A DNA stretch of 32,000 nt from Candidatus Saccharibacteria bacterium oral taxon 488 (GCA_010202845.1 CP047921.1:420001-452000); one strand, 5' to 3'; counted from the first letter of the stretch, positions 1,163 to 19,367 are shown. The notes: generated by a model from the letters alone, not told the origin. Numbers and translations: made by a program.

Positions 1163-1381
1163 CTAATCCTCTTTCTCTCCTTCTTCAATTCTAACCTTCA
1201 ACTCATGCAAAGCACTTCTAGGATCAATCGCCGCTGCAGCCATGGTGTGCAAGAGACCATCAATCTCACGTTCGACGACCTCACTTGGAGATATGCAGAG
1301 GCCTTTAAAGTTCTCTGGGTCCCACTTGCGCGGGCCAGTGTAATAACGACGCTCAGTTTCTTTTGGTACATCCTTTACCAT
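1163..1381 (-). CDS. 72-aa hypothetical protein embedded between rplR and rpsE
   Basis: MVKDVPKETERRYYTGPRKWDPENFKGLCISPSEVVEREIDGLLHTMAAAAIDPRSALHELKVRIEEGEKED. The heptamer TAGTATG forms both junctions (rplR stop/ORF start and ORF stop/rpsE start). GGAG lies 7 nt upstream. The ORF fills the gap exactly. Confidence 0.7.
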   Translation of the reverse strand: MVKDVPKETERRYYTGPRKWDPENFKGLCISPSEVVEREIDGLLHTMAAAAIDPRSALHELKVRIEEGEKED

Positions 1382-1735: not shown

Positions 1736-2275
1736 TTACTTACCTGTCTTTCCTGCTTTGCGCAAAATTTGCTCGTCAGCGTACTTGATACCCTTGCCCT
1801 TGTATGGCTCAGGCTTCTTCAGTGCGCGGATTTCCGCAGCAACTTGGCCAACTTGCTGTTTATTGATACCGCTAACGATGATGGTCATCTTTTCGTTGGT
1901 AACGGTGATGCCCTCTGGGGCTTTGTATTTGACTGGGTGTGAAAACCCGAGCGCCATTTCCAGCTCATTGTTACTGGAGCTCACGCGGAAACCGACACCA
2001 TTGACCTCGAGACGTTTCTCGTAGCCTTTGGTAACGCCGATTACCATGTTGTTGATCAGCGCGCGCATCAGACCGTGCTGGGCGCGAGCAGTTTTGGACT
2101 CATCCTTCGGATGAACCGTGACTTGTCCGTCTTCGACTTTCACCTCAACTGCTGGCGTGATGAATTGTGTCAATTCACCTTTCGGGCCCTTTACGACCAC
2201 ATCGCCAGAGTCAACCGTGATTGTCACACCGGCCGGAATAACCACCGGCAGTTTTCCGATTCGACTCAGACTCAT
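1736..2275 (-). CDS. rplF: 50S ribosomal protein L6
   Basis: MSLSRIGKLPVVIPAGV N-terminus and KGKGIKY C-terminal motif. SD AAGGTGA upstream. Confidence 0.96.
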   Translation of the reverse strand: MSLSRIGKLPVVIPAGVTITVDSGDVVVKGPKGELTQFITPAVEVKVEDGQVTVHPKDESKTARAQHGLMRALINNMVIGVTKGYEKRLEVNGVGFRVSSSNNELEMALGFSHPVKYKAPEGITVTNEKMTIIVSGINKQQVGQVAAEIRALKKPEPYKGKGIKYADEQILRKAGKTGK

Positions 2276-2311
2276 TACTCACCTTTCGTGTGATTTGATA
2301 TTAACCCTGGT

Positions 2312-2341
2312 ATTTTAGCATGGATTAGGGGTGAAATGCAA
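2312..2341 (-). promoter_or_regulatory. Candidate sigma70-type promoter for rplF-rplR-orf72-rpsE-rplO
   Basis: Minus strand TTGCAT, 18-nt spacer, TGCTAAAAT (extended -10). It lies about 35 nt upstream of the rplF SD. Confidence 0.5.
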
Positions 2342-2386
2342 GGTATAAGCTCAGTGATATAACGATTCAACTCTCGGGGACTTTGC

Positions 2387-3352
2387 CTACTTTTGAGGAT
2401 CAGTCCCAGCGGCGTTTTTCAAGAAGTCGAACATACGGATGGCCTTAGTGCTGAGTCTCGAGACGGTTTCAATTTTTCCTCCGGCACCCATCAGTTCATC
2501 GCGCCATATCTGCTGACGCTCTTTCATATCTGCCTCTAGCCCGTAAAAGCTTTCCAATACCTTTTCTTCCAAACCGCCAATTTCCTGGATAGATATTGTA
2601 TCAGTTGTAATCTGGATACCCGCTTCATTCAGCTGATCGGAGAGTTCCTCGTTCACAGATTCTGTTAGACCCGATAATACACGTGCAGCCCTCCTAAGTC
2701 CGTCAATTGTTTTGGCGGTAGCGGGCTGTGCGTCATTGTAGCCGACAATTCCATGCTCGTAGCTGCGCCCCATTCCCTTACATTTGAACTGACTGAGAGG
2801 CATTCCCTCCAGATAGGTGCCGAAGGTTAAGTCATATGTAGCGCCATCTCTATCGTGACTCACATCTACTGACGAACCTGCTACTAGATTAAATTCGCGC
2901 ACCTCCTTGAGTTCTTCTTTGAGAAGCCTGTATAGGTCATATTGCTTAGCATCTAAGCCTTTGAATACAAGATCATGCTGACCATCTGCACAATAATGGG
3001 CGAAGGTATTCTGAAGTGATAGCATATGCTCCGTCGGATCACCATTGATCACATCCAGCTCACGATAAGCTTCGCCTATGGTTGAAAAATCCTCCGAAAG
3101 GCCGTATGGTCGAATTTTCTTGGAGTCAAATACCGTTTGCCATAATTCAGTCCGTTTCTGGAAAAGATCATCATAATAGCCATGAATGGCGTTCATTTGA
3201 TCTGGCGTCAGCATCTTGATGTTTAATCCTGGACCCAATGTATTCACGATAGCAGCGGCACTGAGACGATTTGTCGTATCAGTATGATCAATTGGTCTTT
3301 CATGTATCTCAAGACGGCTGTCTTTGTCGTTTGGTTGTGCTAACTCGTGCAT
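2387..3352 (-). CDS. Hypothetical protein, 321 aa, predicted soluble, His/Asp-rich
   Basis: Long ORF with GGGAGA SD and a consensus promoter upstream. I recognise no family motif. Confidence 0.75.
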   Translation of the reverse strand: MHELAQPNDKDSRLEIHERPIDHTDTTNRLSAAAIVNTLGPGLNIKMLTPDQMNAIHGYYDDLFQKRTELWQTVFDSKKIRPYGLSEDFSTIGEAYRELDVINGDPTEHMLSLQNTFAHYCADGQHDLVFKGLDAKQYDLYRLLKEELKEVREFNLVAGSSVDVSHDRDGATYDLTFGTYLEGMPLSQFKCKGMGRSYEHGIVGYNDAQPATAKTIDGLRRAARVLSGLTESVNEELSDQLNEAGIQITTDTISIQEIGGLEEKVLESFYGLEADMKERQQIWRDELMGAGGKIETVSRLSTKAIRMFDFLKNAAGTDPQK

Positions 3353-3409
3353 GTGCTATTCTCCCAAAGAGTGAAAACTCCACTTTAATACAAATTATCT
3401 AGCCTCTCA

Positions 3410-3437
3410 ATTATACTATATGTGTGCCGTATGTCAA
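3410..3437 (-). promoter_or_regulatory. Near-consensus promoter for the 321-aa ORF
   Basis: Minus strand TTGACA, 16-nt spacer, TATAAT. Confidence 0.6.
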
Positions 3438-3549
3438 TATATACACAGTGCCGGTTTATGCTGAAGCTTTACTGACTAACCGCAAATTATTTTGGCAGTT
3501 TACTTACCCATAGGCGCGTATCATGAGGCCATCGGAAGTGTGCTAATAT

Positions 3550-4095
3550 ATGCTTGTGATCTCAAAATACCTCATCGTAAAAATAAGCTTCGTCGTCTTT
3601 TCTGTATCCACGGTGCTACTGTATATTTTGGCGCGCAATGGAACGATGACTGCGGTTTTTGGGCCGATACTAGCTTATGTTGTATACCTGCTCAATTTTG
3701 CGCTGCTTATCGCGTCCACACTTTTCTACATCTGGCAGTGCGCTCACAAAGACACGCCGCAGAGGGATCGCTTGGAGGCACTCGAGACATATGCGCGACT
3801 AGATAATGATGGCCTGTTGATTAGTGGCGCGGTAACTATTATCGAGATTGAGGCGGACAGCTTTTGGCGGCTCAAGGAATATGGCAAGACGATCACTATA
3901 CCTATCAACACCATGAATCCGCTGCGCCTGCCACCGGTGGGCACGCGGGCAACATTCGCGCCGATTGGCAATAAAGACAATCGAGTCATCGGCGTGATTA
4001 CCGAGATAACGAACGGGAGGATAACGGTCACGCCGGCACCGACAACCAAGCCTAGTAGACCGCAACTCACCGCCAAAACCACGACGTCCAACTGA
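3550..4095 (+). CDS. Hypothetical membrane protein, 181 aa: N-terminal TM helices plus a C-terminal beta-rich soluble domain
   Basis: Hydrophobic N-terminal half (FVVFSVSTVLLYIL, VFGPILAYVVYLLNFALLIASTLFYIW). TGCTAATAT (3541-3549) abuts ATG 3550, so GTG 3556 may be a leaderless start. The stop is TGA. Confidence 0.55.
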   Translation: MLVISKYLIVKISFVVFSVSTVLLYILARNGTMTAVFGPILAYVVYLLNFALLIASTLFYIWQCAHKDTPQRDRLEALETYARLDNDGLLISGAVTIIEIEADSFWRLKEYGKTITIPINTMNPLRLPPVGTRATFAPIGNKDNRVIGVITEITNGRITVTPAPTTKPSRPQLTAKTTTSN

Positions 4096-4615
4096 GCGGT
4101 ATCAGCATGAGCAAGGACGCTATCGCTAGCGTGATGTACGCCCCCAGTGCCGGCCGCGTCAACTGTGGCGTGTCATAATGATACACCCGCCGCAGCTCAT
4201 AATAATCCCACAAACGCCATGCACAAATCATTAATAAAACGGCAGAAATGAGCGACAGCATCCCACTAAGCTCAAAATGATACGTTTGATTACTAAAGTT
4301 AACAACAAACATGAACTCCGCCACCGCCAAACACGACCACCATCGCTTATCTCGTTTTAATCCCATTACCGCTACACAAAATCCCAACGGAATGATCAAT
4401 CGCACCACCGGCGTGTAGTCAAAAAATAGCTGCGTGTAATATTCAATCGGATATTTATTATTGCCTGCAGCCGCCACCAACGCACCTACGCCATAAAACA
4501 ATGTTAATAACACGATGGCAAACACAAACAGCCGCAACATATCATTATACAACACATCTCGCAGTGTGATGACGTCAGTTTTAGAAGTAGCGGGAAGCTT
4601 CAGAAACGGGATCAT
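4067..4615 (-). CDS. Hypothetical polytopic membrane protein, 182 aa, about 5 TM segments
   Basis: Repeated 20-aa hydrophobic stretches. Its 3' end overlaps the convergent plus-strand ORF by 29 nt. The stop is TGA. Confidence 0.7.
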   Translation of the reverse strand: MIPFLKLPATSKTDVITLRDVLYNDMLRLFVFAIVLLTLFYGVGALVAAAGNNKYPIEYYTQLFFDYTPVVRLIIPLGFCVAVMGLKRDKRWWSCLAVAEFMFVVNFSNQTYHFELSGMLSLISAVLLMICAWRLWDYYELRRVYHYDTPQLTRPALGAYITLAIASLLMLIPLSWTSWFWR

Positions 4616-4645
4616 TTTTAGCTACCGTTAGTCCGTGGACAGGTC

Positions 4646-4696
4646 CTTATGATTTTTCATAAGAATATCGTAGTTTGTGAGGTCGGTACGTGTCAA
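4646..4696 (-). promoter_or_regulatory. Candidate promoter plus an 18-bp palindrome upstream of the 182-aa membrane gene
   Basis: Minus strand TTGACA (4691-4696), 18-nt spacer, TACGAT (4667-4672), then CTTATGA-AAAA-TCATAAG (4646-4663). Confidence 0.45.
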
Positions 4697-4721
4697 GGCA
4701 ACGGGGCGTTTAGCCGAGAGA

Positions 4722-5327
4722 CTACTTCTCTTTTACCTCGCACCAGCCGTTGTTACCGTTAGGATAGCAGGTGATATCAAGATCCTTGCCGGTAAATTTT
4801 GTAAAGCCAGAATAGCTTACTGTACCCCAATCCTTCTTCGTTCCACCACAACCAACGGAAACTTTTATTTTTTCGCCGATCACGCCCACCATGTCTTTAG
4901 CATCAACGACTGACCGGTCGCTAGTCGGGGTAGTTTTCACCCAACCAGATTCTAGTGTTTCCTCATTCGCTCGTTCCACCCAAGCACCGACGAACTCATT
5001 ACCGTTGGCACAGGTGATTTTCCCGCCGATAGTGACGATGTCTCCTTCTTTCGGCGTAGTCTTTGTCGGACGCGAGGTTGGTTCTGACGGGGACGGCGTC
5101 ACGGTTTCAGTGACGCGTACGGTTTGCGTCGCCCGTGGCGTCTCGGTCGTTTGCGGATGCCTGTTCGTCGTGGTCACGGTAACAGTCGCTGGGGCTGGCT
5201 TGGCGTCCAATCCCGACAGGCCGCAGCCAGAGGCAAACAATGCCACTACGCCCATAAGGCTAGCTAGCGGCCGGTGTAAAACGTTACCAATTTTTTCGCT
5301 GATGGTGTCTGGGGATTTACGAGTCAT
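4722..5327 (-). CDS. Putative lipoprotein with a Thr/Pro-rich linker and a 4-Cys C-terminal domain
   Basis: Signal-like LASLMGVVALFASGC with a lipobox-like ASGC. Linker PATVTVTTTNRHPQTTETPRATQTVRVTETVTPSPSEPTSRPTKTTP. C-terminal domain carries Cys in ITCANG, VGCGG, ITCYP and GWCEV. Confidence 0.7.
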   Translation of the reverse strand: MTRKSPDTISEKIGNVLHRPLASLMGVVALFASGCGLSGLDAKPAPATVTVTTTNRHPQTTETPRATQTVRVTETVTPSPSEPTSRPTKTTPKEGDIVTIGGKITCANGNEFVGAWVERANEETLESGWVKTTPTSDRSVVDAKDMVGVIGEKIKVSVGCGGTKKDWGTVSYSGFTKFTGKDLDITCYPNGNNGWCEVKEK

Positions 5328-5571
5328 GATTATTCCTTTCTTGTGGTTGATTATCTAATAAGTCGCCGGATATTATAGCCTCGTAAATATGCGCTGCGAG
5401 ACCGGCTGCAGCAATTTTATCAACCGTGTCTCCCCTATATTTGCTGCCCTGTTTATTAATCTTGTTAACTTCATTACTTATCATGCAACTGACTCTGTGA
5501 TCTAGCTTCTTTTGAGTAGCGCGTCTCTCTTTTTGGATGTTAGACCACTTAATTTCTCGAGCTGTTTTGAG

Positions 5572-5895
5572 TCAATCACGCACAGCGCTTAGTCTGGCTA
5601 TAGTAGGCCTAATTTTAGCTATTTCACAAGGAGACTTGGGATTTTCAAGTATTTTCTCTAGTTTTACTATACTATCATCAATCTCTGCTATCTTGGTATC
5701 AATGCGATGTACCTCTTCTAGCTTATTTTTATCGTCGATAATCTCGCCAAGCAGAGCCTCAATTGAAGACTGGGCCTCAGGGTCACGATTCTTTGTACTG
5801 CACATATCTTTTATCACTGCTATAGGATGATGCCATAAAATAACCTTACTGGCAAGTAAAACGCTCTTGTGAAATGGCACGTTACCACGAGACAA
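5572..5895 (-). CDS. Hypothetical coiled-coil-like protein, 107 aa from a TTG start; possibly the 5' part of a disrupted 5317-5895 gene
   Basis: The ORF ends at TGA 5572-5574, but the same frame stays open for 84 more codons down to TAA 5317-5319. The start is uncertain: no SD at TTG 5895, and ATG 5805 (MCSTKNRD) is an alternative. Confidence 0.45.
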   Translation of the reverse strand: MSRGNVPFHKSVLLASKVILWHHPIAVIKDMCSTKNRDPEAQSSIEALLGEIIDDKNKLEEVHRIDTKIAEIDDSIVKLEKILENPKSPCEIAKIRPTIARLSAVRD

Positions 5896-5955
5896 TGATT
5901 AGATTTCACATCAGAGGCACAAGAATCCTCCGCCGTGTGCTATAGTAATATCATC

Positions 5956-6414
5956 ATGGATAAGGATTCTATTGAAACGCCGCCAACACCTCAGGGTGCT
6001 ACACCACCACAGAGTGAAGTGCCGCAATCTCAAGACGAAGCAACGAAACCACAAGACAGCACCACAAAGCGACGATGGCTGGCTCGGTTTGTCGATCGTT
6101 TGACGTGGTGGCAGGCGACAGCAATTATCGCCAGTATCTTCGCATTACCACCAGTGGCTGTTGCTGGTGTGATTGATAAGGGAGTGCCGCTTAATGGTTT
6201 TTTCGGTATTTATAATGGTTCATCATTTGATACTATTATTTTCATTCTGTGTTTGCTCGTCACACCACCGTTAAGCCCTCTGTGTGCACTGATGTTTGCT
6301 ACATACTTTGCCACGAGGCGAAAAGACTTAGCCACCCTGAAGCGCATGATGCCAGTCGCGCTAATCGCCTGTATATTTTTAGTTGCCCTGCTGTCTACAC
6401 TGCTGGGGTCTTAG
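5956..6414 (+). CDS. Hypothetical membrane protein with a Pro/Gln/Thr-rich N-terminus and 3-4 TM segments
   Basis: MDKDSIETPPTPQGATPPQSEVPQSQDEATKPQD followed by hydrophobic segments. TGCTATAGT (5938-5946) lies 9 nt before ATG 5956 with no SD. The ORF track starts at GTG 5935. Confidence 0.65.
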   Translation: MDKDSIETPPTPQGATPPQSEVPQSQDEATKPQDSTTKRRWLARFVDRLTWWQATAIIASIFALPPVAVAGVIDKGVPLNGFFGIYNGSSFDTIIFILCLLVTPPLSPLCALMFATYFATRRKDLATLKRMMPVALIACIFLVALLSTLLGS

Positions 6415-6444
6415 CTTGTTGTGCCGATGTATTTGATAGACAAC

Positions 6445-6485
6445 TAAAAGCGCCCGGAGATTATTTTCCCCGAGCGCTTTTTATT
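6445..6485. terminator. Bidirectional hairpin terminator between convergent orf159 and rpsH
   Basis: AAAAGCGCCCGG...CCGAGCGCTTTTTATT. A T-run follows on the plus strand and CTTTTAG on the minus strand. Confidence 0.65.
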
Positions 6486-6501
6486 GCTGACAAAGCGTAA
6501 T

Positions 6502-6903
6502 TTAATACACCTTCAGTAGCAATTCACCGCCAAGTTTCGCCTTGGCTGCTTCGGCACCAGTCATGACACCTTTTGAGGTTGAGATGAGTACTAGACCGCG
6601 GCCGCTTTTCACCTTTGGAATCTCGCTAGCGCCGACGTAAACACGACGACCTGGCTTTGAGACGCGGGTGATCTCGTTGATGGTGCTGTTGGTACCCTCT
6701 TCGTTGATAGTAACAACCAGCACGCCACGAGGCTTGGCGTCCTCTAGCTTAACATCTGCGAGGTAGCCGTTTTTGACTAATTGTTCAGCGATGACTTTTT
6801 TCATTTTGCTGGACGGAACACGAACTTCCGTCTTGCCAACCAGTTTCGCATTGCGAATGCGCGTCAGAAGGTCGGCGATTGGGTCTGTAGTTTGCATAGA
6901 CAT
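6502..6903 (-). CDS. rpsH: 30S ribosomal protein S8
   Basis: TDPIADLLTRIRNA motif. I place the start at ATG 6903 (MSMQTTDP), 8 nt after AAAGGAGA. The ORF track extends to 6930. Confidence 0.95.
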   Translation of the reverse strand: MSMQTTDPIADLLTRIRNAKLVGKTEVRVPSSKMKKVIAEQLVKNGYLADVKLEDAKPRGVLVVTINEEGTNSTINEITRVSKPGRRVYVGASEIPKVKSGRGLVLISTSKGVMTGAEAAKAKLGGELLLKVY

Positions 6904-6923
6904 TGTCGAATCTCCTTTCCTTC

Positions 6924-7193
6924 TTACCAACTACTCTTTGTTATGCCTGGGATTTCACCCTTGGCTGCTTTTTCGCGGAAATTGATGCGGCTCAGACCAA
7001 ACTGGCGCATATAGCCGCGTGGACGGCCGGAAATGCTGTCGCGGTTCTTGTGCCTGGTTGGGCTCGAGTTGCGAGGCAATTTCTGCAAACCGTCGAGGTC
7101 GCCAAGTTCTTTCAATTTAGCGCGTTTGGCTGCAAACTTAGCTATCATCTTCAGGCGCTTTTTGTCGCGAGCGACCATTGATTTCTTAGCCAT
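6924..7193 (-). CDS. rpsN: 30S ribosomal protein S14, long form without the zinc-binding Cys motif
   Basis: [14 protein letters not shown]-terminus and [28 protein letters not shown]-terminus. GGAGGT SD 9 nt upstream. Confidence 0.95.
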
Positions 7194-7357
7194 TAATCAT
7201 TACCTCCGTCTAACTCAACTGTACGCTCATCATCTGGGATGCCCCAACCTTCTTGCTCGGGTGTCCAGTCCTCTGGATCAATCGCACCCCAACCTTCCTG
7301 TTCAGGTGTCCAGTCTGCATAGTGTTCACGATTGAGGCTATTAATAGTTTCGCTCAT
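7193..7357 (-). CDS. 54-aa acidic Trp-repeat micro-protein between rplE and rpsN, absent from the ORF track
   Basis: Hand translation gives [59 protein letters not shown] overlaps occur at both ends. AAAGGAGGTG SD lies 7 nt upstream. The internal repeat differs only at synonymous sites. Confidence 0.75.
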
Positions 7358-10192: not shown

Positions 10193-10657
10193 TTACTTCT
10201 CCTCCTTTTTTGCCGTGGTTTCGGCGGCTTTTTTCGCTGCAGGCTTGGCAGGTTTGGTTTCTGCTTTGACCTTGGTCTCTGGTTTTTTCGCAGGCGCTTT
10301 CTTTGGCTTCTCAGTACCAGTTACTTCAACCAAAATATTTGACGTCTTTTTCTGGAACGGCAAGGCACGACCGCGTGACGCTGGCTTAAAGCGGCGCAGA
10401 CGCGTACCAGTGGTAACGCTCAACGTGGTAATCACCAAGCTTTTAGCGTCCAAACCGTGGTTGTTGATGGCATTTGCCTTGGCGCTGTCGATTGCCTTTT
10501 TGACTGGCATAGCAGCGCGTTTTGGCACGTGTTCCAAGATAACCAATGCATCAGCGACGGTGCGGCCGCGTACTAGTGCAGCCACCAAGCTAACCTTGCG
10601 TGGTGTTTGGTCAACACCTTTGGCGTAAGCGCGAACAGTATAAGTTGTATCAGCCAT
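10193..10657 (-). CDS. rplV: 50S ribosomal protein L22, with a Lys/Ala/Glu-rich C-terminal tail
   Basis: TPRKVSLVAALVRGRTVADALVILEHVPKRAA core and KKAPAKKPETKVKAETKPAKPAAKKAAETTAKKEEK tail. Confidence 0.95.
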   Translation of the reverse strand: MADTTYTVRAYAKGVDQTPRKVSLVAALVRGRTVADALVILEHVPKRAAMPVKKAIDSAKANAINNHGLDAKSLVITTLSVTTGTRLRRFKPASRGRALPFQKKTSNILVEVTGTEKPKKAPAKKPETKVKAETKPAKPAAKKAAETTAKKEEK

Positions 10658-10659
10658 GA

Positions 10660-10926
10660 TTACTTCTTATCCTTTCCGCCGTGCTTACGGAACTTACGAG
10701 TTGGGCTAAACTCACCGAGTTTGTGGCCAACCATGTTTTCAGTAATCAGCACAGGCACGTGCATCTTACCGTTGTAGACGGCGATGGTTCGACCGACCAT
10801 TTCTGGGGTGATGGTCGAAGCGCGCGCCCACGTTTTGATAACGGTTCGATCGTCAAGGCTGAGAGCAGCGACTTTTTTCGCAAGCTTCACATCGACGAAT
10901 GGACCTTTCTTTAATGAACGACTCAT
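10660..10926 (-). CDS. rpsS: 30S ribosomal protein S19
   Basis: [12 protein letters not shown] and [13 protein letters not shown]. Confidence 0.97.
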
Positions 10927-10932
10927 CGTGAT

Positions 10933-11772
10933 TTACCTCTTCCTCTTCGCGTCGTGACGCGTGCGTACGATTAATTTATTTGAGCCTTTGCGGCGGCGAG
11001 TTCGATAACCCAGCGTCAATTGACCCCATGGCGTACGTGGTGCTTTACCAGTACCGTGGCGACCACCGTCACCACCACCATGCGGGTGATCTGCAGCGTT
11101 CATGACGACACCGCGAACCGTTGGGCGAATACCCTTGCGGCGGCGGCGGCCAGCTGAACCGATCTTCACGTTCTGGTGCTGGATGTTACCGACTGTACCG
11201 ATGGCAGCGGTAGCTTCCAGGCGAACTTTGCGAACTTCACCAGACGGCAATTTGATAGTTGCGTAATTGCCTTCTTTGGCCATCAACTGAGCTTTGGCAC
11301 CAGCAGCGCGAACCATTTGCGCACCTTTGCCGGCAGTCAGTTCAATAGCATAAATCATCGTACCAACAGGGATAGCAGACAGCGGCAGGCGGTTTGAGGC
11401 CTCAATTGGCGCTTCCTCGCCAGTCTGAATCGTCTTGCCCTTGACCATTGAGGTGTCAGCCAATACATAGTGGTACAAATTGTACTGATCCTTCACCCGA
11501 GCGATGCGTGCTGAGCGGTTTGGATCGTACTCAATTTCTTCAACCGTCAACGTCAGACCAGCCGGTAAATTGTGGTTCACCAAACGGTAGTGACGGCGAA
11601 CGCCACCGCCGCGATGACGCACGGTGATGCGGCCTTGGTTGTTGCGGCCGGCATTTTGCTTTTTGGCTTTGATCAGACTTTTGAGCGGTTTTCTTGTCGT
11701 GATGTCCGACAAGTCCTGGCTCGTCATGCCGCGACGAGCAGGAGTGGTTGGATTGTAAGCTTTCACTGGCAT
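10933..11772 (-). CDS. rplB: 50S ribosomal protein L2
   Basis: GGGVRRHYRLV and VVMNAADHPHGGGDG motifs. Confidence 0.97.
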   Translation of the reverse strand: MPVKAYNPTTPARRGMTSQDLSDITTRKPLKSLIKAKKQNAGRNNQGRITVRHRGGGVRRHYRLVNHNLPAGLTLTVEEIEYDPNRSARIARVKDQYNLYHYVLADTSMVKGKTIQTGEEAPIEASNRLPLSAIPVGTMIYAIELTAGKGAQMVRAAGAKAQLMAKEGNYATIKLPSGEVRKVRLEATAAIGTVGNIQHQNVKIGSAGRRRRKGIRPTVRGVVMNAADHPHGGGDGGRHGTGKAPRTPWGQLTLGYRTRRRKGSNKLIVRTRHDAKRKR

Positions 11773-12092
11773 TACTTGGTCTCCTCCATCTGCTGCTCTA
11801 CTGCGTCAAACACATCGAGCTTATCGCCATCTTTCAGCGTCACGTAAGCTTTCTTCCAATCCTTGCGCGTGGTCGTGCCAGGATAGCGGTTCTTGCCTCG
11901 TGAGAAACGCACAGCTTTGCCGTCTTGGACCAAGGTTTTTACCTTCAGAACAGTAACGTCAAATTGCGCTTCAACCGCTGCTTTGATCTCGTTTTTATTC
12001 AGGTTCAGCGGAACGCGGAACACGTACACGCCATTGGCGCTCACGGCGTAGGCTTTCTCGCTAATGCGTGGGATAATTGTCATCTGTTTCAT
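11772..12092 (-). CDS. rplW: 50S ribosomal protein L23
   Basis: IIPRISEKAY, FRVPLNLNKNEIKAAVE and WKKAYVTL. Confidence 0.95.
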   Translation of the reverse strand: MKQMTIIPRISEKAYAVSANGVYVFRVPLNLNKNEIKAAVEAQFDVTVLKVKTLVQDGKAVRFSRGKNRYPGTTTRKDWKKAYVTLKDGDKLDVFDAVEQQMEETK

Positions 12093-12093
12093 A

Positions 12094-12693
12094 TTACGCT
12101 TCCTCCTTACTCAGCCACTCAGTGATTACTGGCAGAGCTTTCGGGGTCATGACAATGGTATCCGCATTCAGAATGTGGTAGACGCTGAGGTAGCTCGCAC
12201 GAATTACCAATACGTTCTGGATGTTGTTTGTCGCACGCATTAATTCTGGCGTCTTTTCGTCAACGACGATCAGTACGCGGCGCTCAAACTTGTTGTCAGC
12301 CAAGAAGGTTGCGACCTCTTTGGTCTTGCCAGTCGTCTTGATGTCTTTGACGACGATCTTCTTCGCTTCATTGGCTACCGTCAAGGCTTGGCGAATTGCC
12401 ACTTTCTTGGCGGTTTTAGACAATTTTTTGGTGTAGTTTTCGTTGCCGCGCGGGCCAAAGACTACACCACCACCGTGCCAGATTGGGTTACGGGTTGAAC
12501 CGAAACGTGCCCGGCCAGTTCCCTTTTGCTTCCATGGTTTTTTACCACCACCGGAAACTTCACCGCGCTGCTTGGTGGTTGCGCTTGCTAGGCGGGCGTT
12601 TGCCAGGTAGCTGTCATATGCCAATTTCAACAGTTCGTGGTTTGGCACTTCAACAGCGAAAATGTCTTTAGGAAGTTTGGTTGATTCAGCCAT
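12094..12693 (-). CDS. rplD: 50S ribosomal protein L4
   Basis: GGGKKPWKQKGTGRARFGSTRNPIWHGGGVVFGP. Confidence 0.97.
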   Translation of the reverse strand: MAESTKLPKDIFAVEVPNHELLKLAYDSYLANARLASATTKQRGEVSGGGKKPWKQKGTGRARFGSTRNPIWHGGGVVFGPRGNENYTKKLSKTAKKVAIRQALTVANEAKKIVVKDIKTTGKTKEVATFLADNKFERRVLIVVDEKTPELMRATNNIQNVLVIRASYLSVYHILNADTIVMTPKALPVITEWLSKEEA

Positions 12694-13307
12694 TACTTGT
12701 TACCTCCTAAAATGATCAGCCCTTTTCGTGGCCCAGGGACAGCGCCCTTCACCCCGATCAGATTGGTCTCTGGGTCAACATATGCCACTTCCAGGTTCTT
12801 GACCGTAACACGCTCGTGACCCATGTGGCCAGCCATCGTCTTACCCTTGAACACTTTTTGTGGATACATTGAGCCAATTGAACCTGGCTTACGAGTATTA
12901 CCTTTACCACCGTGCGTCTTGCGGTGACGCTTAAAGTTGTGGCGTTTAATGGTTCCAGCGAAACCTTTACCTTTGCTGGTTCCGGTCGCATCGACAGAAT
13001 CGCCGACTTCGAACGCGGAAACGTTGATTTCATCGCCAACTTTGAGACCTTCAGGGATCTCGTCGACGCGGAATTCCCGAATGTGTTTCGGGGTCACTTG
13101 GGCTGGCTTGACGTGTCCAGCCACGGCCTTGCTCAGGTTCTTACCCTCTCCATAAGCGACCTGTACCGCATTGTAACCGTCGGTTTCGACAGTCTTCACC
13201 TGAGTCACGGTGACAGGGCCGGCTTGGATCAGCGTTACCGGAATGGCTTTGCCGTCTTCAGCCAAGAGCTGGGTCATACCAAGTTTGGTACCGAGAAGTG
13301 TTTTCAC
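12693..13307 (-). CDS. rplC: 50S ribosomal protein L3
   Basis: LGTKLGMTQL and FKRHRKTHGGKGNTRKPGSIG. GTG start after GGAGTGAGGA. Confidence 0.96.
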   Translation of the reverse strand: MKTLLGTKLGMTQLLAEDGKAIPVTLIQAGPVTVTQVKTVETDGYNAVQVAYGEGKNLSKAVAGHVKPAQVTPKHIREFRVDEIPEGLKVGDEINVSAFEVGDSVDATGTSKGKGFAGTIKRHNFKRHRKTHGGKGNTRKPGSIGSMYPQKVFKGKTMAGHMGHERVTVKNLEVAYVDPETNLIGVKGAVPGPRKGLIILGGNK

Positions 13308-13456
13308 TTTTCCTCACTCCCACTTAAATACTCCTGATGACGTGCGGTTTCTGGGTTCTGGGTGAGGCGTTCATGACAAGCGCTTTAATCATAACCAGAC
13401 CTGCTCATTCATCAAGGAGAACAGTTGATATTACGCGTAATAGAAATTACCTTGTG

Positions 13457-13486
13457 ATTGTAGCATATGTGGCGCTCTAAAGTCAA
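13457..13486 (-). promoter_or_regulatory. Candidate promoter of the rplC-to-rpsH operon
   Basis: Minus strand TTGACT, 18-nt spacer, TGCTACAAT (extended -10). It implies a leader of about 140 nt. Confidence 0.55.
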
Positions 13487-13557
13487 CGCTAGAAACACCT
13501 CTGGGGAGATAGCTTGGGCACAGTAGTCATACCCTATTTTATTATTTTATAAATAGT

Positions 13558-13573
13558 GCTACAATGTTAACCT
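13558..13573 (+). promoter_or_regulatory. Extended -10 promoter placed for a leaderless or near-leaderless transcript of orf241
   Basis: TGCTACAAT (13558-13565), then 8 nt, then ATG 13574. No SD. Confidence 0.45.
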
Positions 13574-14299
13574 ATGACTGTCAATATCTTGCAACGAGCC
13601 GGTGAGTTTGCTCGTTTTGTGGGTCAGAATAATCCAGATAAATTACTCGAGGTAAGAAACCCTGCGCGTAGATTACTTTTACAAGGAGCAATGGCTACAA
13701 AGTTACTGCCACTATTGTTTGGACGCTACTATAACCGTAAGGATTATTCTCCCATAGAACGCTTCGGTTTGAGTGTTATTGGTCGGGGCCACCACTCTAT
13801 CGCCGCCCATGATCCCAAGACAGATACAGTGATAAAATTTCATTATCGTCACTCTAATCACACCGAGGCAGAAATGGAGCAGATGGTGCGAGAGCTTGAA
13901 GGCAAACAACAAAAATGCTTATCAGCGCTTGGAGCAATCGCGGTCAGTCAAACGTACGAGATAGACAGTTCTCCGTACAATCCATCGCGGCCAATGATTA
14001 TCGCCCGCCAGCAATTTATACCGACGAAGCGCGCCATAATGTTAGCCGATATACCAAGACAAGGTATAAGGTCTATCCCCGATATCCGAGAGTTTATGGC
14101 TGGTAATACAAAAATGCTCTACGGACATAAGGCAGTGGCCGACATATTTGGACACGGGAATCTAGTAGTTAATGATGATAATAAACTTAAACTTGTCGAC
14201 CCGATACCACTAGTTGCCGAGGAAGCTTCCCAAGCACGATATCACGAGGCAAAAAACATTGTCAAAGAAATGTCCGACGCGTTAGTATGCAACCATTAA
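13574..14299 (+). CDS. Hypothetical protein, 241 aa, with motifs resembling an atypical (RIO/APH-like) protein-kinase fold
   Basis: VIGRGHHSIA (Gly-loop-like), TVIKFHYR (Lys), EAEMEQMVRELE (helix C-like), FGHGNLVVNDDNKLKLVDP (catalytic-loop and DFG-like, with Asn where the catalytic Asp is expected). The assignment rests on motifs only. Confidence 0.6.
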   Translation: MTVNILQRAGEFARFVGQNNPDKLLEVRNPARRLLLQGAMATKLLPLLFGRYYNRKDYSPIERFGLSVIGRGHHSIAAHDPKTDTVIKFHYRHSNHTEAEMEQMVRELEGKQQKCLSALGAIAVSQTYEIDSSPYNPSRPMIIARQQFIPTKRAIMLADIPRQGIRSIPDIREFMAGNTKMLYGHKAVADIFGHGNLVVNDDNKLKLVDPIPLVAEEASQARYHEAKNIVKEMSDALVCNH

Positions 14300-14359
14300 T
14301 ATGGCGCGAGCTACCCGCTCAATCCCGATAGCAAGCACTCTGAGGCCACCTACTAAATA

Positions 14360-14386
14360 CCGCCCCGATAAGGAGCGGCATTTTTT
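14360..14386. terminator. Hairpin terminator between convergent orf241 and fusA
   Basis: CCGCCCC-GATAA-GGAGCGG followed by CATTTTTT on the plus strand. The minus-strand U-tract is weaker (TATTTAG). Confidence 0.6.
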
Positions 14387-14406
14387 AGCATTGTTATCAC
14401 TACACC

Positions 14407-16494
14407 CTAGGCATTGCGCTTCTCGATGATCTCCTGCGCCACGTTTGGCGGTACTTCCTCGTACTGTGCTAGCTCCATGGTGCTGGCGGCGCGACCCTGC
14501 GACATCGAGCGGATGTCTGAGGTGTAGCCAAACATATTTGCTAGCGGCACAAAGGCCTTGACCAATTTGGCGCCGCCCATCAGATCTTCCATAGCGTCGA
14601 TACGGCCGCGGCGTGAATTCAGGTCGCCGATGATGTCGCCCATGAACTCTTCTGGGGTGGTGACTTCGACTTTCATGACTGGCTCAAGCAGAATTGGTGT
14701 GGCTTGCTTGATACCTTCACGAGCTGCCAACGAACCTGCTAGAGAGAAAGCTAGTTCTGAGGAGTCGACATCGTGGTACGAACCATCATACAGCGTCGCC
14801 TTGACATCAACCACTGGATAGCCAGCGATAACGCCGCCCTCCAACGTCTCTTTGATACCCTTCATCACAGCCGGGCGATATTCCTGAGGAACCACACCGC
14901 CTTTAATCTCGTCGATAAATTCAAAGCCTTTGCCAGCTTCGTTTGGCTCAAAGCGTACCCAAACGTCACCGTACTGACCGCGACCACCAGACTGCTTGGC
15001 GTGCTTACCCTGGACTTCGGCGCGGCCCTTGATTGACTCGCGGAAGGCCACTTGTGGCTCACCGATGTTTGCTTCAACCTTGAACTCGCGCTTCATGCGG
15101 TCGATCAAGATATCGAGGTGTAACTCACCCATGCCGGACATGATGGTCTGACCAGTTTCTTCGTCAGTGTGAATACGGAAGGTTGGGTCTTCCTCGGCCA
15201 GGCGCTGCAGGGCGAGTGCCATCTTTTCCTGGTCGGCCTTTGACTTTGGCTCAACGGCGATAGAAACTGGCGGCTCTGGGAACTCGATACTTTCCAGGGC
15301 AATTGGGTGTGCCGGGTCAGTCAGGGTGTTACCGGTACCGGTGTTCTTCAAACCAACCACCGCAGCGATGTCACCAGCACCAATCTTGTCAATCTCCTCA
15401 CGCTTGTCAGCGTGCATGCGCACGATACGGCCGATGCGCTCTTTGTCACCAGTGGTGGTATTCAGGACGTAGCTGCCCGAGCTCAAGACGCCGGAGTAGA
15501 CGCGGATGAAGATCAACTTACCAACAAATGGGTCAGTGGCGATCTTGAACGCCAGGGCGCTCATTGGCTCTTTCTCGTCTGGCTTGCGGCCCACTTCATC
15601 ACCAGTCTTTGGATTCTTACCCCAAATTTCGTCAACGTCCAATGGGCTTGGTAAGAAGTCAACCATCAAGTCAAGCAGCTTCTCGACGATGACGCCGCGG
15701 CCGTCACCGCCAGTCACTAGGTAAAAGTCGCCAGCCAGCACCCGCTTACGCAACGCAGATTTTAGTTCATCAATAGTAATTGCCTCTTCACCCTGGTCGA
15801 GGAACTTCATCATCAATTCATCGTCAGCTTCAACGGCATTCTCCACTAGCAGGGCGCGAGCATTCTTCGCCTTCTCCAGCATGTCGGCTGGGATCTCGCC
15901 GACCTTTAGCTCATGATCAGTGTAGTCATCGTAGGTGTAAGCTTTCATGTCGATGAGGTCAACCACGCCGTTGATAGTCTTTTCAAAACCAATTGGGATG
16001 TGAATCGGAAAGGCTTGTTTACTCAAGCGATTATGAATCGACTCTAGCGATTTCCAAAAGTCGCCGCCGGTCTGGTTGATCTTGTTAACGAAACAGATGC
16101 GTGGCACGCCGTATTTGTTAGCCTGGCGCCACACCGTCTCGGACTGAGCCTCGACACCCATTTTGCCGTCGAATACAGTAACAGCGCCATCGAGCACGCG
16201 CAGCGAACGCTCCACCTCAGCGGTAAAGTCGATGTGCCCTGGGGTGTCGATGATGTTAATCTTATGGTCTTTCCAGAAGCAGGTCACCGCCGCCGAAGTG
16301 ATGGTGATGCCGCGCTCCTTTTCTTGCGCCATCCAGTCGGTGGTAGCACCATCGCCATCACCCTTGACCACGCCAATTTTATGCGTCAAACCAGTGCGGT
16401 ACAAGATGCCCTCAGTGGTCGTCGTTTTACCGGCGTCAATATGGGCAATAATACCAATATTTCTAAAGTTTTGTAATGGAACGTTTGCTGCCAT
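14407..16494 (-). CDS. fusA: Elongation factor G
   Basis: [18 protein letters not shown]1 motif, DTPGHIDF G3 motif, 695 aa. Confidence 0.98.
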
Positions 16495-16577
16495 TCTTCT
16501 TTCCTTTGTTAAAAATGGTTATTGTTCGAGATTCTCCGGAGCTATTTTTACGCACCAAAAAACTACGCTTGAGCTGT

Positions 16578-16606
16578 ATTATAGCAGACGATCAGCATTT
16601 TGTGAA
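16578..16606 (-). promoter_or_regulatory. Candidate dedicated promoter for fusA
   Basis: Minus strand TTCACA, 17-nt spacer, TGCTATAAT. Confidence 0.5.
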
Positions 16607-16623
16607 TGTGAATGAGCCCTGTC

Positions 16624-17535
16624 TTACCGTGGAATTTGACTACGACCTGATTGGATCCATTGTATTCCCTTGGCTACAAGCAGGTAATCTCTATTTTGAG
16701 CGTCAGACCGACCAAGGAGCGTTGCACGCACCATCATCACCAAAGAATTGTAGCCTTCGGGATCCGTGATAGCCTCTAGGGAGATAGACTGCACATACAT
16801 CGCACCTTTCGCCTCTAATCCAACCCACCCCTCGTTGCGAAAGGCGGGGCCCATATACGTAACGTCATACGGCATATATGAATCAAGTGAAGCCAGCACC
16901 TTGCAATGAATGTTTATCGCCTTAATCACTCGATTGAGGTCTCTATTTGACAATCGCCCAAAAGGAATTTCATCAATCGGAACATCTGCTAGCTCCCTGA
17001 TCATCCGAGCTGAGTCGATACAATTATTGTTTGGATCAACTGGTCGTATATTATTCAAATAATCAAGGACTTCAGGCGTGTACAGCTGTAAAATAGCCTT
17101 GGCCTGTTCAATATCCATCAGCTGCGGAAATTGAATAAGGACATCTAGCGGAACAACATATTGAGTCGTGGTATCCCCTGGTGTTACGCCAAGACCACCA
17201 AGTGCAATTTCTGGATCAGACTTGTTCGCGACAATCAGACAACCGGCGCACTGGAGTTTATGATCTTCAATATATACGTATTCTGCTCCGTTTTTGGTGT
17301 ATTGTTGCACCCATCCGCTTACCGTCATCAGCTGACCTATAAACCCGGCAAATAGTTCTTGGTTAATCTGCACAGTGGCTTCTGGATACTGATGAGGACT
17401 GAGCTTTCGAATGTCGGACGTTCGTTCTCGAGCTAGGCGGAGGACAGTGGCAACTTGCTGATTGAAAACAGCCTTATCAAGTAACGCAAGGTTCTCGGGC
17501 AGCGGGGCGGCAGATGGGCTAGGCTCAGTCGTCAT
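16624..17535 (-). CDS. Hypothetical protein, 303 aa
   Basis: Long ORF between yajQ and fusA. I recognise no motif. Confidence 0.7.
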   Translation of the reverse strand: MTTEPSPSAAPLPENLALLDKAVFNQQVATVLRLARERTSDIRKLSPHQYPEATVQINQELFAGFIGQLMTVSGWVQQYTKNGAEYVYIEDHKLQCAGCLIVANKSDPEIALGGLGVTPGDTTTQYVVPLDVLIQFPQLMDIEQAKAILQLYTPEVLDYLNNIRPVDPNNNCIDSARMIRELADVPIDEIPFGRLSNRDLNRVIKAINIHCKVLASLDSYMPYDVTYMGPAFRNEGWVGLEAKGAMYVQSISLEAITDPEGYNSLVMMVRATLLGRSDAQNRDYLLVAKGIQWIQSGRSQIPR

Positions 17536-17588
17536 CCCTTAATCATACGGCGTAAAAGCCGACTGACGCAACCATAACCGTAAAGCTC

Positions 17589-18083
17589 TTAGCGATAATT
17601 CACGCACTGCAGCGGCGTGTCATAATCATTCTCACGCACTAAACTAATGACTTTTTGCAACTCATCTTTCGAGGCGGAAGTGACGCGGACAAGGTCGCCT
17701 TGGATTTGCGGCTTGGCTTTGGGCGCGTTAGTACGAATATCGGCGGCAATGCGCTTGGCGGTCGGCTGGTCGAGGCCCTGTTTGAAGGGAATTTCCCACG
17801 TGGTTTTGAGATTTGAGGTGACTTTTTCTTTGGCGAGGTCGAGGACCTTGCTCGACTGACCCCGGGCCGCCAGTTTCTTGCGCACGATATCCAGCACCGC
17901 ATCAACCTGCCAGTCGTTATCGCCGGTGAGCTTGAATCCTTTTTTATCATCCAGCCAGTCAATCCCAGCATTCGTTCCCTTAAAATCGTACCGCCCTTGG
18001 ATTTCTTTTTCCGCCTGCATGAAAACATTATTTAGCTCGGCTTTGTCAATTTCTGACACGATGTCAAATGAAAAACTTGTCAT
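17589..18083 (-). CDS. yajQ: YajQ-family (UPF0234) nucleotide-binding protein
   Basis: It aligns end to end with E. coli YajQ as I recall it: SFDIVSEID, RYDFKG, PKAKPQIQGDLVRVTSASKDELQ, PLQCVNYR. Confidence 0.9.
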   Translation of the reverse strand: MTSFSFDIVSEIDKAELNNVFMQAEKEIQGRYDFKGTNAGIDWLDDKKGFKLTGDNDWQVDAVLDIVRKKLAARGQSSKVLDLAKEKVTSNLKTTWEIPFKQGLDQPTAKRIAADIRTNAPKAKPQIQGDLVRVTSASKDELQKVISLVRENDYDTPLQCVNYR

Positions 18084-18102
18084 TTACCCCTCCTCGTTTT
18101 CT

Positions 18103-18110
18103 CCATTATA
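18103..18110 (-). promoter_or_regulatory. Extended -10 element (TGTTATAAT) for yajQ, immediately after the rpsG terminator
   Basis: Minus strand TTTTTGTTATAATGGAG, then GAGGAGGGG SD 5 nt before the ATG. Confidence 0.4.
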
Positions 18111-18139
18111 ACAAAAATCGCCCGTTTTTCAGAGCGATT
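18111..18139 (-). terminator. Rho-independent terminator after rpsG
   Basis: Minus strand ATCGCTC-TGAAAAAC-GGGCGAT followed by TTTTTGT. Confidence 0.6.
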
Positions 18140-18163
18140 TCTGAGTTTACATTTTCCCGACAA

Positions 18164-18643
18164 TTAGCCGCGAGCAAAGTGCGCAAAGGCGCGGTTGGCT
18201 TCGGCCATCTTGTGGGTGTCTTCTTTCTTCTTGAAGGCAGCACCAGCTTCGTTGTAGGCGTCAACGATTTCCAATGCCAAACGCTGCGAGTACGGCATAC
18301 CCTGTCGAGCACGAGCCGACTGTACTAGCCAGCTAAACGCATAGTGCAACTGCCGATGTCCCTGAACTGGGAACGGGATCTGGTAGTTCGCACCACCGAC
18401 GCGGCGACTCTTCACTTCAAAGTTTGGGCTAACGTTTTTCAAGGCTTTTTCAAACACTGCCAATGGATCTTCTGAATCCAATTTCTTGGCAGCCGTTTCC
18501 AGCGCGGTGTAAACAGCACGTTCAGCCGCTAACTTCTTGCCGTCCAGCATTGACTTATTGATCAAGCGCTGTACTAACACGCTTTGGTAGCGGCGGTCAG
18601 GTTGCAATTGGCGTTGTAATTTCTTGGTAACTTTACGAGGCAT
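18164..18643 (-). CDS. rpsG: 30S ribosomal protein S7
   Basis: MPRKVTKKLQRQLQPDRRY and GGANYQIPFPV motifs. Confidence 0.97.
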   Translation of the reverse strand: MPRKVTKKLQRQLQPDRRYQSVLVQRLINKSMLDGKKLAAERAVYTALETAAKKLDSEDPLAVFEKALKNVSPNFEVKSRRVGGANYQIPFPVQGHRQLHYAFSWLVQSARARQGMPYSQRLALEIVDAYNEAGAAFKKKEDTHKMAEANRAFAHFARG

Positions 18644-18645
18644 GA

Positions 18646-19059: not shown

Positions 19060-19267
19060 CCAATTTCTCCTTGGTTGATTTACTAATTATGGCGATTCGC
19101 CTGGTGGCGTAGAGTGAACTGGCGGCAGCGTTTGCACGCAAAAACTAGCTTCTCTTAGCGCCTACGGCTTGGATTCAGCAACTCCGCCCCGTGTCTATAC
19201 CTTTTCTGCCGAGCGTGCAGCCTGTACACATTCAAACCACCGCGCACCCCGAAAAGAGGAAACTCTG
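19060..19267 (-). promoter_or_regulatory. Long GC-rich 5' leader of rpsL, about 200 nt, candidate cis-regulatory RNA
   Basis: It lies between the predicted promoter and the rpsL SD AAGGAGA. It contains several mutually exclusive complementary segments. Confidence 0.4.
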
Positions 19268-19273
19268 GGGGTC

Positions 19274-19303: not shown

Positions 19304-19367
19304 GTGGCGGCCCTCTTTAGATCTCTTACACGAGGAATACGCCTGCTACACGCCGCGTTGTATCGTA

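Follow-up and report, generated by a model that had tools for sequence, protein, structure and literature searches.

A probable flexible-genome hotspot at the rpsH-rplF junction of a split spc operon in Nanosynbacter-type Saccharibacteria

The S10-spc cluster of ribosomal protein genes is a textbook case of frozen gene order, and rpsH and rplF adjoin one another in essentially all bacterial spc operons. Flexible genomic islands are familiar from Prochlorococcus, and many such hotspots have no integrases; chromosomal hotspots of horizontal gene transfer flanked by core genes have reportedly been described by Oliveira et al. (2017). The subject of this report is a stretch of 32,000 nucleotides from Candidatus Saccharibacteria bacterium oral taxon 488 (GCA_010202845.1, CP047921.1:420001-452000; hereafter the window), in which rpsH and rplF are separated by 4226 bp of DNA containing six genes. 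This 4.2-kb stretch is probably the strain's allele of a flexible-genome hotspot at a fixed position, with the spc operon split into two units around it. The G1 Saccharibacteria have been described as unusually syntenic (PMC7427843). A hotspot inside this particular cluster is thus unexpected on both counts.

With core-gene-flanked hotspots of horizontal gene transfer the site shares its fixed position, its varying content, an atypical base composition and cargo that includes defence and other accessory genes; it differs from them in that the flanks are two neighbouring spc genes and that its genome, that of an ultra-small episymbiont, is very poor in mobile elements. The closest analogue is hypervariable region 2 (HVR2) of SAR11 (Pelagibacter), which is bounded by a 16S-tRNA-tRNA-23S cassette and the 5S rRNA gene (PMC3448164). 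There as here, a streamlined and syntenic genome holds a hypervariable region of strain-specific content at a fixed position inside an ultra-conserved translation operon (PMC3448164). However, HVR2 splits an rRNA operon and comprises about 50-80 genes, whereas the present site splits a ribosomal-protein operon, comprises 1-10 genes (0.7-8.5 kb) and is enclosed by a conserved terminator/promoter bracket. The open-access text of the main comparative papers on Saccharibacteria does not mention the rpsH-rplF site and stresses either high synteny or strain-level variation of gene content (PMC7427843, PMC9040727, PMC11659515, PMC7739484). In groundwater Patescibacteria, translation genes are over-represented in predicted genomic islands, and those acquired horizontally are mainly genes for ribosomal proteins (PMC12455944), a result that is consistent with, but not identical to, the present finding. 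The kind of object, a flexible genomic island or hotspot, is already known.

The conserved flanks are rplF on the right (1736-2275, minus strand; Pfam Ribosomal_L6, E 2.5e-40), which is the first gene of the distal spc unit, and rpsH on the left (6502-6930, minus strand; Pfam Ribosomal_S8, E 2.5e-39), which is the last gene of the proximal unit. The canonical organisation, with rpsH followed directly by rplF in one transcription unit, is not found in the window. The survey comprised 80 species-representative loci around rpsH, 18 more found by exact-protein look-up and 80 reached through homologues of one of the six cargo proteins (I3); they are cited here by number (L001 onwards), and those with rpsH at least 89% identical to that of the window are called Nanosynbacter-type. 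The gap between rpsH and rplF is open in all 55-56 Nanosynbacter-type loci that contain both genes, ranging from 684 to 8478 bp with a median of about 3.1-3.3 kb, and in several further loci rplF does not lie within 10 kb of rpsH. The 16 other junctions of the S10-spc cluster served as a control: their median gaps are -7 to +2 bp (30-82 loci), with the exception of rplB-rplV, where the median of 275 bp is rpsS itself, a gene that was not among the queries. Insertions at these junctions are rare and small (up to about 220 bp, and one of 363 bp); measured by them, the rpsH-rplF gap is far larger than chance would produce. The open arrangement recurs in the complete chromosomes CP128407.1, CP146064.1, NZ_CP076459.1 and NZ_CP157587.1. 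Close spacing of rpsH and rplF was found only in more distant Saccharibacteria, namely 14 bp in L078 and 165 bp in L073 (Saccharimonas aalborgensis). The L073 gap (10418-10585) contains a 44-codon hydrophobic open reading frame (ORF; MDVLAIVLTIVPIVLLVILIQ...), from which it appears that the junction may have been open already before the Nanosynbacter radiation.

The content of the gap differs even between close relatives. In the 56 complete gaps there are 36 gene architectures and 41 families of proteins of at least 80 aa, 15 of which are singletons. Ten contigs that encode an L6 protein 100% identical to that of the window have eight different architectures, and eight contigs with identical copies of I1, the cargo gene nearest rplF, differ at the slot adjacent to rpsH, which holds either an RDD-family gene or the gene designated I6. 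The rplF gene itself is 92-100% identical across the Nanosynbacter-type loci. The DNA homology that the window shares with its relatives breaks off at the rpsH stop codon, or immediately beyond the terminator, and restarts near 2344, 69 bp upstream of rplF; the variable cargo region in between (2345-6501) aligns in part to only 1-12 of the 80 related loci, versus 47-80 for the flanks. These partial alignments (L018, L022, L024, L026, L034 and L074) are module-wise and break off at discrete points, which coincide with gene boundaries (near 5354 and 3554), so that the allele is a mosaic. A synteny comparison in relatives had been proposed in an earlier sequence-only reading of this DNA, and its outcome, variable content, points to a hypervariable hotspot throughout the genus; the complete genomes do not show the same six genes fixed between rpsH and rplF in close relatives. 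The G+C content of the island had been estimated by hand to be low, and the computed value is 46.5-46.6%, which is 5-6 points below the adjacent ribosomal genes (51.6-52.2%) and 9 points below rpoBC (55.9%), and the lowest among 278 sliding windows of 4.2 kb. Three features of a hotspot are present, namely a fixed position between the same core genes, content that differs among close relatives and atypical composition; for a fourth, horizontal exchange of the cargo, the signs point both ways. The site is filled differently in nearly every lineage and tolerates almost any gene.

The variable region lies between two conserved signals. Beyond rpsH, a predicted bidirectional intrinsic-terminator hairpin with a 15-bp stem (6446-6481, both strands) would close both the rpsH unit and the convergent gene I6; it was already recognised in the sequence-only reading, and its predicted folding is strong on the rpsH strand (-29.4 kcal/mol, z -7.6) as well as on the opposite strand, where it is accompanied by a U-run (-23.6 kcal/mol, z -4.5). 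A GC-rich hairpin and T-run are found 15-25 nt past the rpsH stop codon in nearly all related loci, and belong to at least two unrelated sequence classes; there is no such hairpin after rpsH in L078, where rplF follows directly (14 bp). Upstream of rplF, right-anchored comparison between loci delimits a putative promoter/leader element of 69 bp (2276-2344, minus strand) with a -35 hexamer TTGCAT (2336-2341), an 18-nt spacer, an extended -10 element TGCTAAAAT (TAAAAT, 2312-2317) and a Shine-Dalgarno sequence AAAGGTGAG. This element occurs in one copy per locus, always directly upstream of rplF, and is absent from L078 and L073, in which rpsH and rplF are close. In the right-anchored comparison of 50 loci, both hexamers and the Shine-Dalgarno sequence are kept even where the spacer diverges (L067 and L070-L072), which is the pattern expected of a working promoter. 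The conservation of terminator and promoter across alleles argues that the bracket belongs to the chromosome rather than to the island, as a set of fixtures present in all alleles. The transcriptional insulation that had been ascribed to the island would be provided by this bracket and does not appear to be the island's own. Along with the hotspot description, it is likely that the spc operon is constitutively split after rpsH in the Nanosynbacter-type clade, and we infer that the bracket is transcriptionally active: the terminator would close the proximal unit and the 69-bp promoter/leader element would restart transcription of rplF-rplR-rpsE-rplO.

Sister alleles carry a wide range of cargo. 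Enzymes are represented by three NUDIX families, two Ham1/ITPase families, CYTH, HIT, an NDK-NUDIX fusion and five alpha/beta-hydrolase families; other products are an ABC-F-like double ATPase, RDD, DUF6591, HU-HIG, a Mom-family protein, a zeta toxin, and GT2 and GT4 glycosyltransferases accompanied by a histidine phosphatase. The defence pair IetA/IetS (PADLOC E 9e-36 and 5.5e-64) is present in L032 and L048, and also in L044 and L092. The likeness of some alleles to defence islands, which rests on IetA/IetS, the zeta toxin, the Mom-family protein and NUDIX or other nucleotide-sanitising genes, has its limits: the six genes of the window have no PADLOC match, and most cargo families are not known defence genes. 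The family F4 (18 loci; for example L062 15441-16385) is a 314-aa protein with no Pfam or PADLOC match, usually paired with Ham1 and the I3 family; by eye, its motif HIYEH would conform to HxxEH, the signature of inverted zincins (M16 peptidases).

The interval in the window contains five intact ORFs and one ORF with a nonsense mutation, designated I1 to I6 in order from rplF to rpsH. The six ORFs listed in the sequence-only reading are all there, and its failure to assign them to families is matched by searches of Pfam, NCBIfam, PHROGs and PADLOC, none of which gave a match for I1-I6. The proteins of the window correspond to locus tags GWK78_02185 to 02340, all of which are labelled hypothetical. 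The near-consensus promoters that had been picked out within the island were both called by a promoter scan: a predicted sigma-70-type promoter upstream of I1 (3410-3437, minus strand; TTGACA-16-TATAAT, 12/12 consensus positions) and a predicted promoter-like site upstream of I3 (4667-4696, minus strand; TTGACA-18-TACGAT, 10/12).

I1 (2387-3352, minus strand; GWK78_02200, 'hypothetical protein') is a soluble protein of 321 aa in the slot next to rplF, which it adjoins in all eight contigs inspected. It occurs in 2 of 78 regions of the species survey and forms only 25 clusters, all at least 71% identical and all retaining the full reading frame. A profile search of 1.84 billion representative proteins returned I1 itself, a fragment and one weak match (P0102), which looks like a low-complexity or coiled-coil match. 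A profile search of the PDB found no relative either. I1 is restricted to this lineage.

I2 (3550-4095, plus strand; 181 aa; GWK78_02205) has two N-terminal hydrophobic segments followed by a C-terminal domain, and I3 (4067-4615, minus strand; 182 aa) has four transmembrane segments; they are the two convergent membrane proteins of the sequence-only reading, and the genes overlap by 29 bp. All segment counts given here come from a crude hydropathy scan. I2 co-occurs only with the window-type allele of I3. The I3 family (F0) is the most widespread at the hotspot, being found in 34 of 78 surveyed regions and as the sole gene of the minimal, 685-bp allele. It falls into three deep allelic classes of 40-61% mutual identity, which are found in genomes with rpsH 94-99% identical to that of the window and have the motif WRLWDYYE in common, and its metagenomic homologues sit among island families or adjoin rpsH or rplF. 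I3 is probably the ancestral resident of the site.

I4 (4722-5327, minus strand; 201 aa) is predicted to be a lipoprotein with a signal sequence, a lipobox FASGC (Cys35; N-terminal segment LASLMGVVALFASGC), a Thr/Pro-rich linker and a C-terminal four-cysteine beta-sandwich. The lipoprotein and its linker had been proposed before, and the lipobox cysteine proves to be invariant in 35 homologues, so that by sequence pattern I4 qualifies as a predicted bacterial lipoprotein. Its homologues form 63 clusters of 48-97% identity. The C-terminal domain has four invariant cysteines amid mosaic sequence variation and no sequence match to PDB or Pfam; residues 91-201, approximately, are modelled as an all-beta sandwich (AlphaFold predicted local distance difference test score [pLDDT] mostly 82-91, with two 10-residue blocks at 60-71). 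Synonymous divergence (dS) in this domain is 0.63 versus 0.15-0.19 in the flanks, three- to fourfold higher, which suggests that old alleles may be kept or re-imported through recombination. Gene-wide positive selection on the domain was ruled out, the ratio of nonsynonymous to synonymous divergence (dN/dS) being 0.22.

I5 (5317-5895, minus strand) is a nonsense-disrupted copy of a 192-aa gene, interrupted by an in-frame TGA (5572-5574) into parts of 107 and 55 aa. The TGA had been seen before in what was described as a coiled-coil ORF, and by eye the sequence does look helical or coiled-coil-like; the nature of the gene has to be revised, because L022 and L024 have CGA (Arg) at this position and an intact ORF of 192 codons. 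I5 in this strain is thus a recent nonsense allele and not a case of recoding. An alternative genetic code was also rejected, since relatives have CGA and TGA terminates ordinary genes here. PDB sequence searches with I2 and I5 gave no match. I6 (5935-6414, plus strand; 159 aa), convergent with rpsH, has the Pro/Gln-rich N-terminus and membrane character attributed to it earlier, with three hydrophobic segments; in sister strains its slot is alternately occupied, or shared, by an RDD-family membrane gene.

When compared with homologous modules elsewhere, the cargo genes have dN/dS values of 0.14 (I3), 0.18 and 0.22 (N- and C-terminal parts of I4), 0.36 (I6), 0.43 (I2, across seven loci) and 0.52 (I5), while the flanks have 0.04 (rpsH) and 0.01 (rplF). 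Values in this range argue that the island ORFs are genuine genes under purifying selection, and that of I5 suggests relaxed constraint.

The alternative that survives best, the idea of the sequence-only reading, is a module dedicated to the envelope or to host interaction: the six genes would work as one unit in building or decorating the surface of the episymbiont, for example for attachment to its host bacterium, and this would be what the locus is for. Four of the six products are candidates for membrane proteins or lipoproteins, as the sequence-only reading had counted, at the level of crude hydropathy and a lipobox; I4 combines a Thr/Pro stalk with a beta-sandwich that was modelled with confidence and comes closest, within the PDB, to a carbohydrate-binding module; this protein is highly polymorphic (63 clusters with a mosaic C-terminal domain), and the sets I4-I5-I6 and I2-I3 each travel together in several strains. 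But the set is not a fixed unit: I1 is exchanged for hydrolase/F26, HU-HIG or other genes, I6 for RDD, and I5 is a pseudogene. The fold match of I4 is not significant (E 7e-3), and its dN/dS of about 0.2 gives no sign of gene-wide positive selection. In sister genomes the same slot holds cytoplasmic enzymes, toxins and defence genes, and only 16 of the 41 island families appear membrane-associated. As the cargo of sister alleles is mostly of these kinds, the locus is not dedicated to envelope functions; it is a general accessory-gene site, and the envelope flavour noted in the sequence-only reading, which does hold for most products of this allele, is a property of this allele. The module is therefore compatible with a hotspot only as a statement about the cargo of one allele, and as an account of the locus we regard it as unlikely, though it is the strongest of the competitors. 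That I4 and the membrane proteins act at the surface or towards the host is plausible and the best guess for them, but a tentative one of low probability.

Traces of how the cargo may turn over were found in several alleles. Partial copies of rpsH lie inside five islands (L008, L023, L030, L016 and L014). In L008, 309 bp of the 3′ part of rpsH, 95% identical, separate a newer module of 5.4 kb from older cargo; the remnants in the other four are shorter. The genes of the module upstream of the L008 remnant are those for a histidine phosphatase, two glycosyltransferases and an NDK-NUDIX protein; a recombinase is not among them, and none was found in the window or among about 55 island proteins scanned from other loci. 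L092 and L032 share an IetAS-Ham1 island at 95.4% identity versus 86-89% for their ribosomal flanks, and in L014 and L045, similarly, the identity of the island exceeds that of the flanks by 6 points. Southlakia epibionticum was shown to undergo natural transformation that depends on ComEC, and targeted integration of linear DNA bearing homology arms at its ends (about 1 kb in S. epibionticum) was also obtained in N. lyticus ML1 and TM7x (PMC10633639), so this route is available. Taken together, the lack of an integrase, the rpsH fragments and natural transformability point to homologous or homology-facilitated illegitimate recombination of naturally transformed DNA through the ribosomal flanks. 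Cargo would be gained, lost and shuffled module by module between rpsH and rplF, with the near-invariant ribosomal genes acting as homology arms and without a dedicated recombinase. The rpsH scars would be left when incoming DNA was anchored by homology in or upstream of rpsH and its other end was joined illegitimately; alternatively, a circular intermediate may have integrated by a single crossover.

The rpsH scars have another possible meaning, namely that the site harbours a degraded mobile element of the integrase type (an integrative island, prophage remnant or transposon) that targeted the 3′ part of rpsH. The copies in five islands do resemble displaced target-gene ends, like those at islands that integrate at the 3′ ends of tRNA or tmRNA genes, and the lower G+C content of the island and the toxin and defence cargo of some alleles would suit such an element. 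However, scans against Pfam, NCBIfam and PHROGs found no integrase or transposase among the proteins of the window, in agreement with the sequence-only reading, and no relaxase or phage protein came to light there or among the 55 or so other island proteins. The region 2345-6501 is bracketed by no pair of direct or inverted repeats, the window has neither a tRNA gene nor a match to Rfam, searches of phage and plasmid collections with the island DNA gave no match, and no relative of I1 or I4 was found on viral contigs. The rpsH copies themselves are in five loci other than the window, and the L008 module stands beside its remnant without a recombinase. Unlike known 3′-end-integrating islands, the site has no integrase or att repeats that could be found, and the target would be a protein-coding ribosomal gene; the remnants fit homology-facilitated illegitimate recombination and 3′-end integration equally well. 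We consider a degraded mobile element very improbable. Integron platforms offer a likeness in outline, with a fixed site, resident expression signals and small modules that accumulate and are exchanged, but no IntI-type recombinase was found here, no conserved repeat was seen at either end of the island or separating its modules (no search aimed at attC sites was made), most modules are predicted to come with promoters of their own, and both strands carry genes.

A comparably poor prospect is that the six genes are lineage-specific, fixed extensions of the operon with housekeeping or ribosome-linked roles, which are inherited vertically and evolve fast. It would account for the I3 family being common at the site and the only gene of the minimal allele, for purifying selection on all ORFs, and for most shared island DNA being less similar than the flanks, as vertical descent predicts. 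It is at odds with the differences in gene presence and absence among contigs that have identical L6 or identical I1, with the rarity of I1 (2 of 78 regions and 25 clusters overall), with the inactivation of I5, and with the many alleles from which I3 is missing.

Several observations nevertheless weigh against the hotspot reading or parts of it. Among the species-level pairs of loci that share at least 1 kb of island DNA, the islands are less similar than the flanks in 112 of 167; vertical descent would explain much of this pattern, and it looks as if much of the content was inherited vertically, evolving faster and with differential loss, while import across species was occasional. A comparison of left- and right-flank identity for pairs that share only one adjacent module, meant to detect transfer of a flank together with its module, was ungapped and is confounded by phylogeny and indels. 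The route of recombination, which is deduced from the rpsH scars and the lack of recombinases found, is accordingly put forward with less assurance than the hotspot itself. The promoter that the sequence-only reading placed at 2312-2341 has a weak -35 hexamer (3/6 consensus positions) and is not called by the consensus scan, although it is conserved in every Nanosynbacter-type locus. The fold search on AlphaFold models that had been recommended gave a C-terminal beta-sandwich for I4, but its best Foldseek match is generic (CBM41 2j71, E 7e-3, TMt 0.59, 11% identity), the domain is also near transthyretin-like folds, and no structural match in the PDB reaches E 1e-3; the model of I1, made from an alignment of 12 sequences, has a pLDDT of 35 and was unusable. 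Finally, loci with no rplF at a distance of 10 kb or less (the L001 type, L075-L079 and the I3-family loci of the L118 type) could be rearrangements rather than very large islands.

Two of these groups deserve description. In L075-L079, a more distant clade with rpsH 76-77% identical to that of the window, a terminator hairpin follows rpsH and there is no rplF within 10 kb (approximately 10418-20417); the downstream genes, named by sequence inspection only, would encode a P-type ATPase-like protein, a UvrD/PcrA-like helicase, a Dus-like protein and ATP synthase epsilon. Here too it is the rpsH-rplF junction at which the operon is interrupted, either through rearrangement or through insertion of a very large segment. 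In loci of the L118-L149 type, such as L126 (4547-8263), an I3 homologue of a 65-70%-identity class comes after the usual island genes (F4, F23 and F26) and precedes genes for DUF1697, a HAD hydrolase, an LD-carboxypeptidase and a choline-kinase/APH-like kinase; the rplF promoter element does not occur within 4 kb. Such loci would have either an island of much greater size or a second interruption of the operon.

An artefact of assembly or binning that joined unrelated DNA between rpsH and rplF has next to no probability: metagenomic contigs often break here, and six of the eight I1 contigs shown are pieces of 4.6-4.9 kb (three running from rpsH/S8 to rplF/L6, with the end genes unannotated in the others), but complete chromosomes and 55 of 55 independent loci show it as well, and an 853-kb genome is the source of deposited proteins that are exactly the same. 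Strain heterogeneity was also considered as the meaning of contig ends that fall within the gap, an idea that was dropped because contigs of these fragmented bins end about as often in the 10 kb upstream; in this respect only the I1 contigs of 4.6-4.9 kb are relied on.

If the rpsH-rplF junction is a hotspot of this kind, it would explain the frequent breaks of metagenome-assembled genomes within the block of ribosomal markers on which binning and phylogenomics draw. A strain-typing marker for oral Nanosynbacter could be amplified from primers placed in rpsH and rplF, and the site would offer a natural, pre-insulated landing pad for the engineering of newly tractable Saccharibacteria. It concentrates strain-specific genes for surface, defence and nucleotide-sanitation functions, which are candidates for differences in host range or phage resistance between strains that are otherwise alike. 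A more speculative proposal, which may well be wrong, is that the locus works as a recombinase-free cassette platform: the operon would be kept split so that rpsH and rplF could serve as universal cross-species arms for transformed DNA, and the same logic would apply to small ORFs at other junctions of the cluster. Such a platform would be a main route of pangenome flexibility in genome-reduced episymbionts that are poor in mobile elements.

Small insertions of that sort were seen at several places. In the window, a 159-bp insert exactly between rplE and rpsN contains an acidic ORF of 54 aa (7193-7357, minus strand), with a tandem 10-letter peptide repeat encoded by a DNA repeat (7242-7270 and 7287-7315). 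The insert ends at both sides in AGGTAATGA, a duplication of the TAATG stop/start overlap by which translational coupling would be kept. The ORF is present in 1-4 of 79 species loci, and its product on 76 contigs. Similarly, an ORF of 72 aa (1163-1381, minus strand) lies in a 212-221-bp insert between rplR and rpsE, both ends of which are TAGTATGG, the duplicated stop/start junction; it is absent in all 47 species loci that cover the site and present in L096, and its 90%-identity cluster includes the N. lyticus protein WP_285441213. Other strains have further unannotated ORFs at such junctions: a 57-aa ORF between rplV and rpsC, a 122-aa ORF between rplB and rpsS, and ORFs of 110-123 aa (plus one of 375 aa in L095) between rpsJ and rplC; the junction ORFs of this group are at L092 742-915, L097 4515-4688, L090 1129-1497, L089 1189-1521 and L095 954-2474. 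Junction insertions look like a recurrent habit of this clade.

Gene order at the distal end of the ribosomal cluster also varies (L089 13643-17118; L090 12028-12732). In some strains a 234-aa minus-strand ORF is found between rplO and secY, and the interval from secY to infA in other strains contains an ORF of 193 aa together with genes for a Penicillinase_R (CopY/BlaI-like) repressor and for an HMA P-type ATPase; rpmJ was called in some loci only. In the window, rpsJ and tuf lie outside the 32 kb, and rplC is preceded by fusA (14407-16494) and then a 241-aa plus-strand ORF with no family match (13574-14299). This segment (13308-14406) is shared by one of about 58 loci and the adjacent fusA by five, the order in other strains being Ldh-rpsJ-orf110-rplC. 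Between fusA and rpsG (16624-18083) the gene for a DUF520 protein is accompanied by an ORF of 303 aa that matches no family, and between rpsL and rpoC (19368-20816) is a 482-aa ORF, again with no family match; PADLOC gave no match for the interrupting genes of these two segments of the str region. Toward the far end of the window, the genes for thymidylate kinase, a dCTP deaminase-like protein, dihydrofolate reductase and thymidylate synthase (29073-31971) make up an ordinary cluster for the synthesis of deoxythymidine monophosphate.

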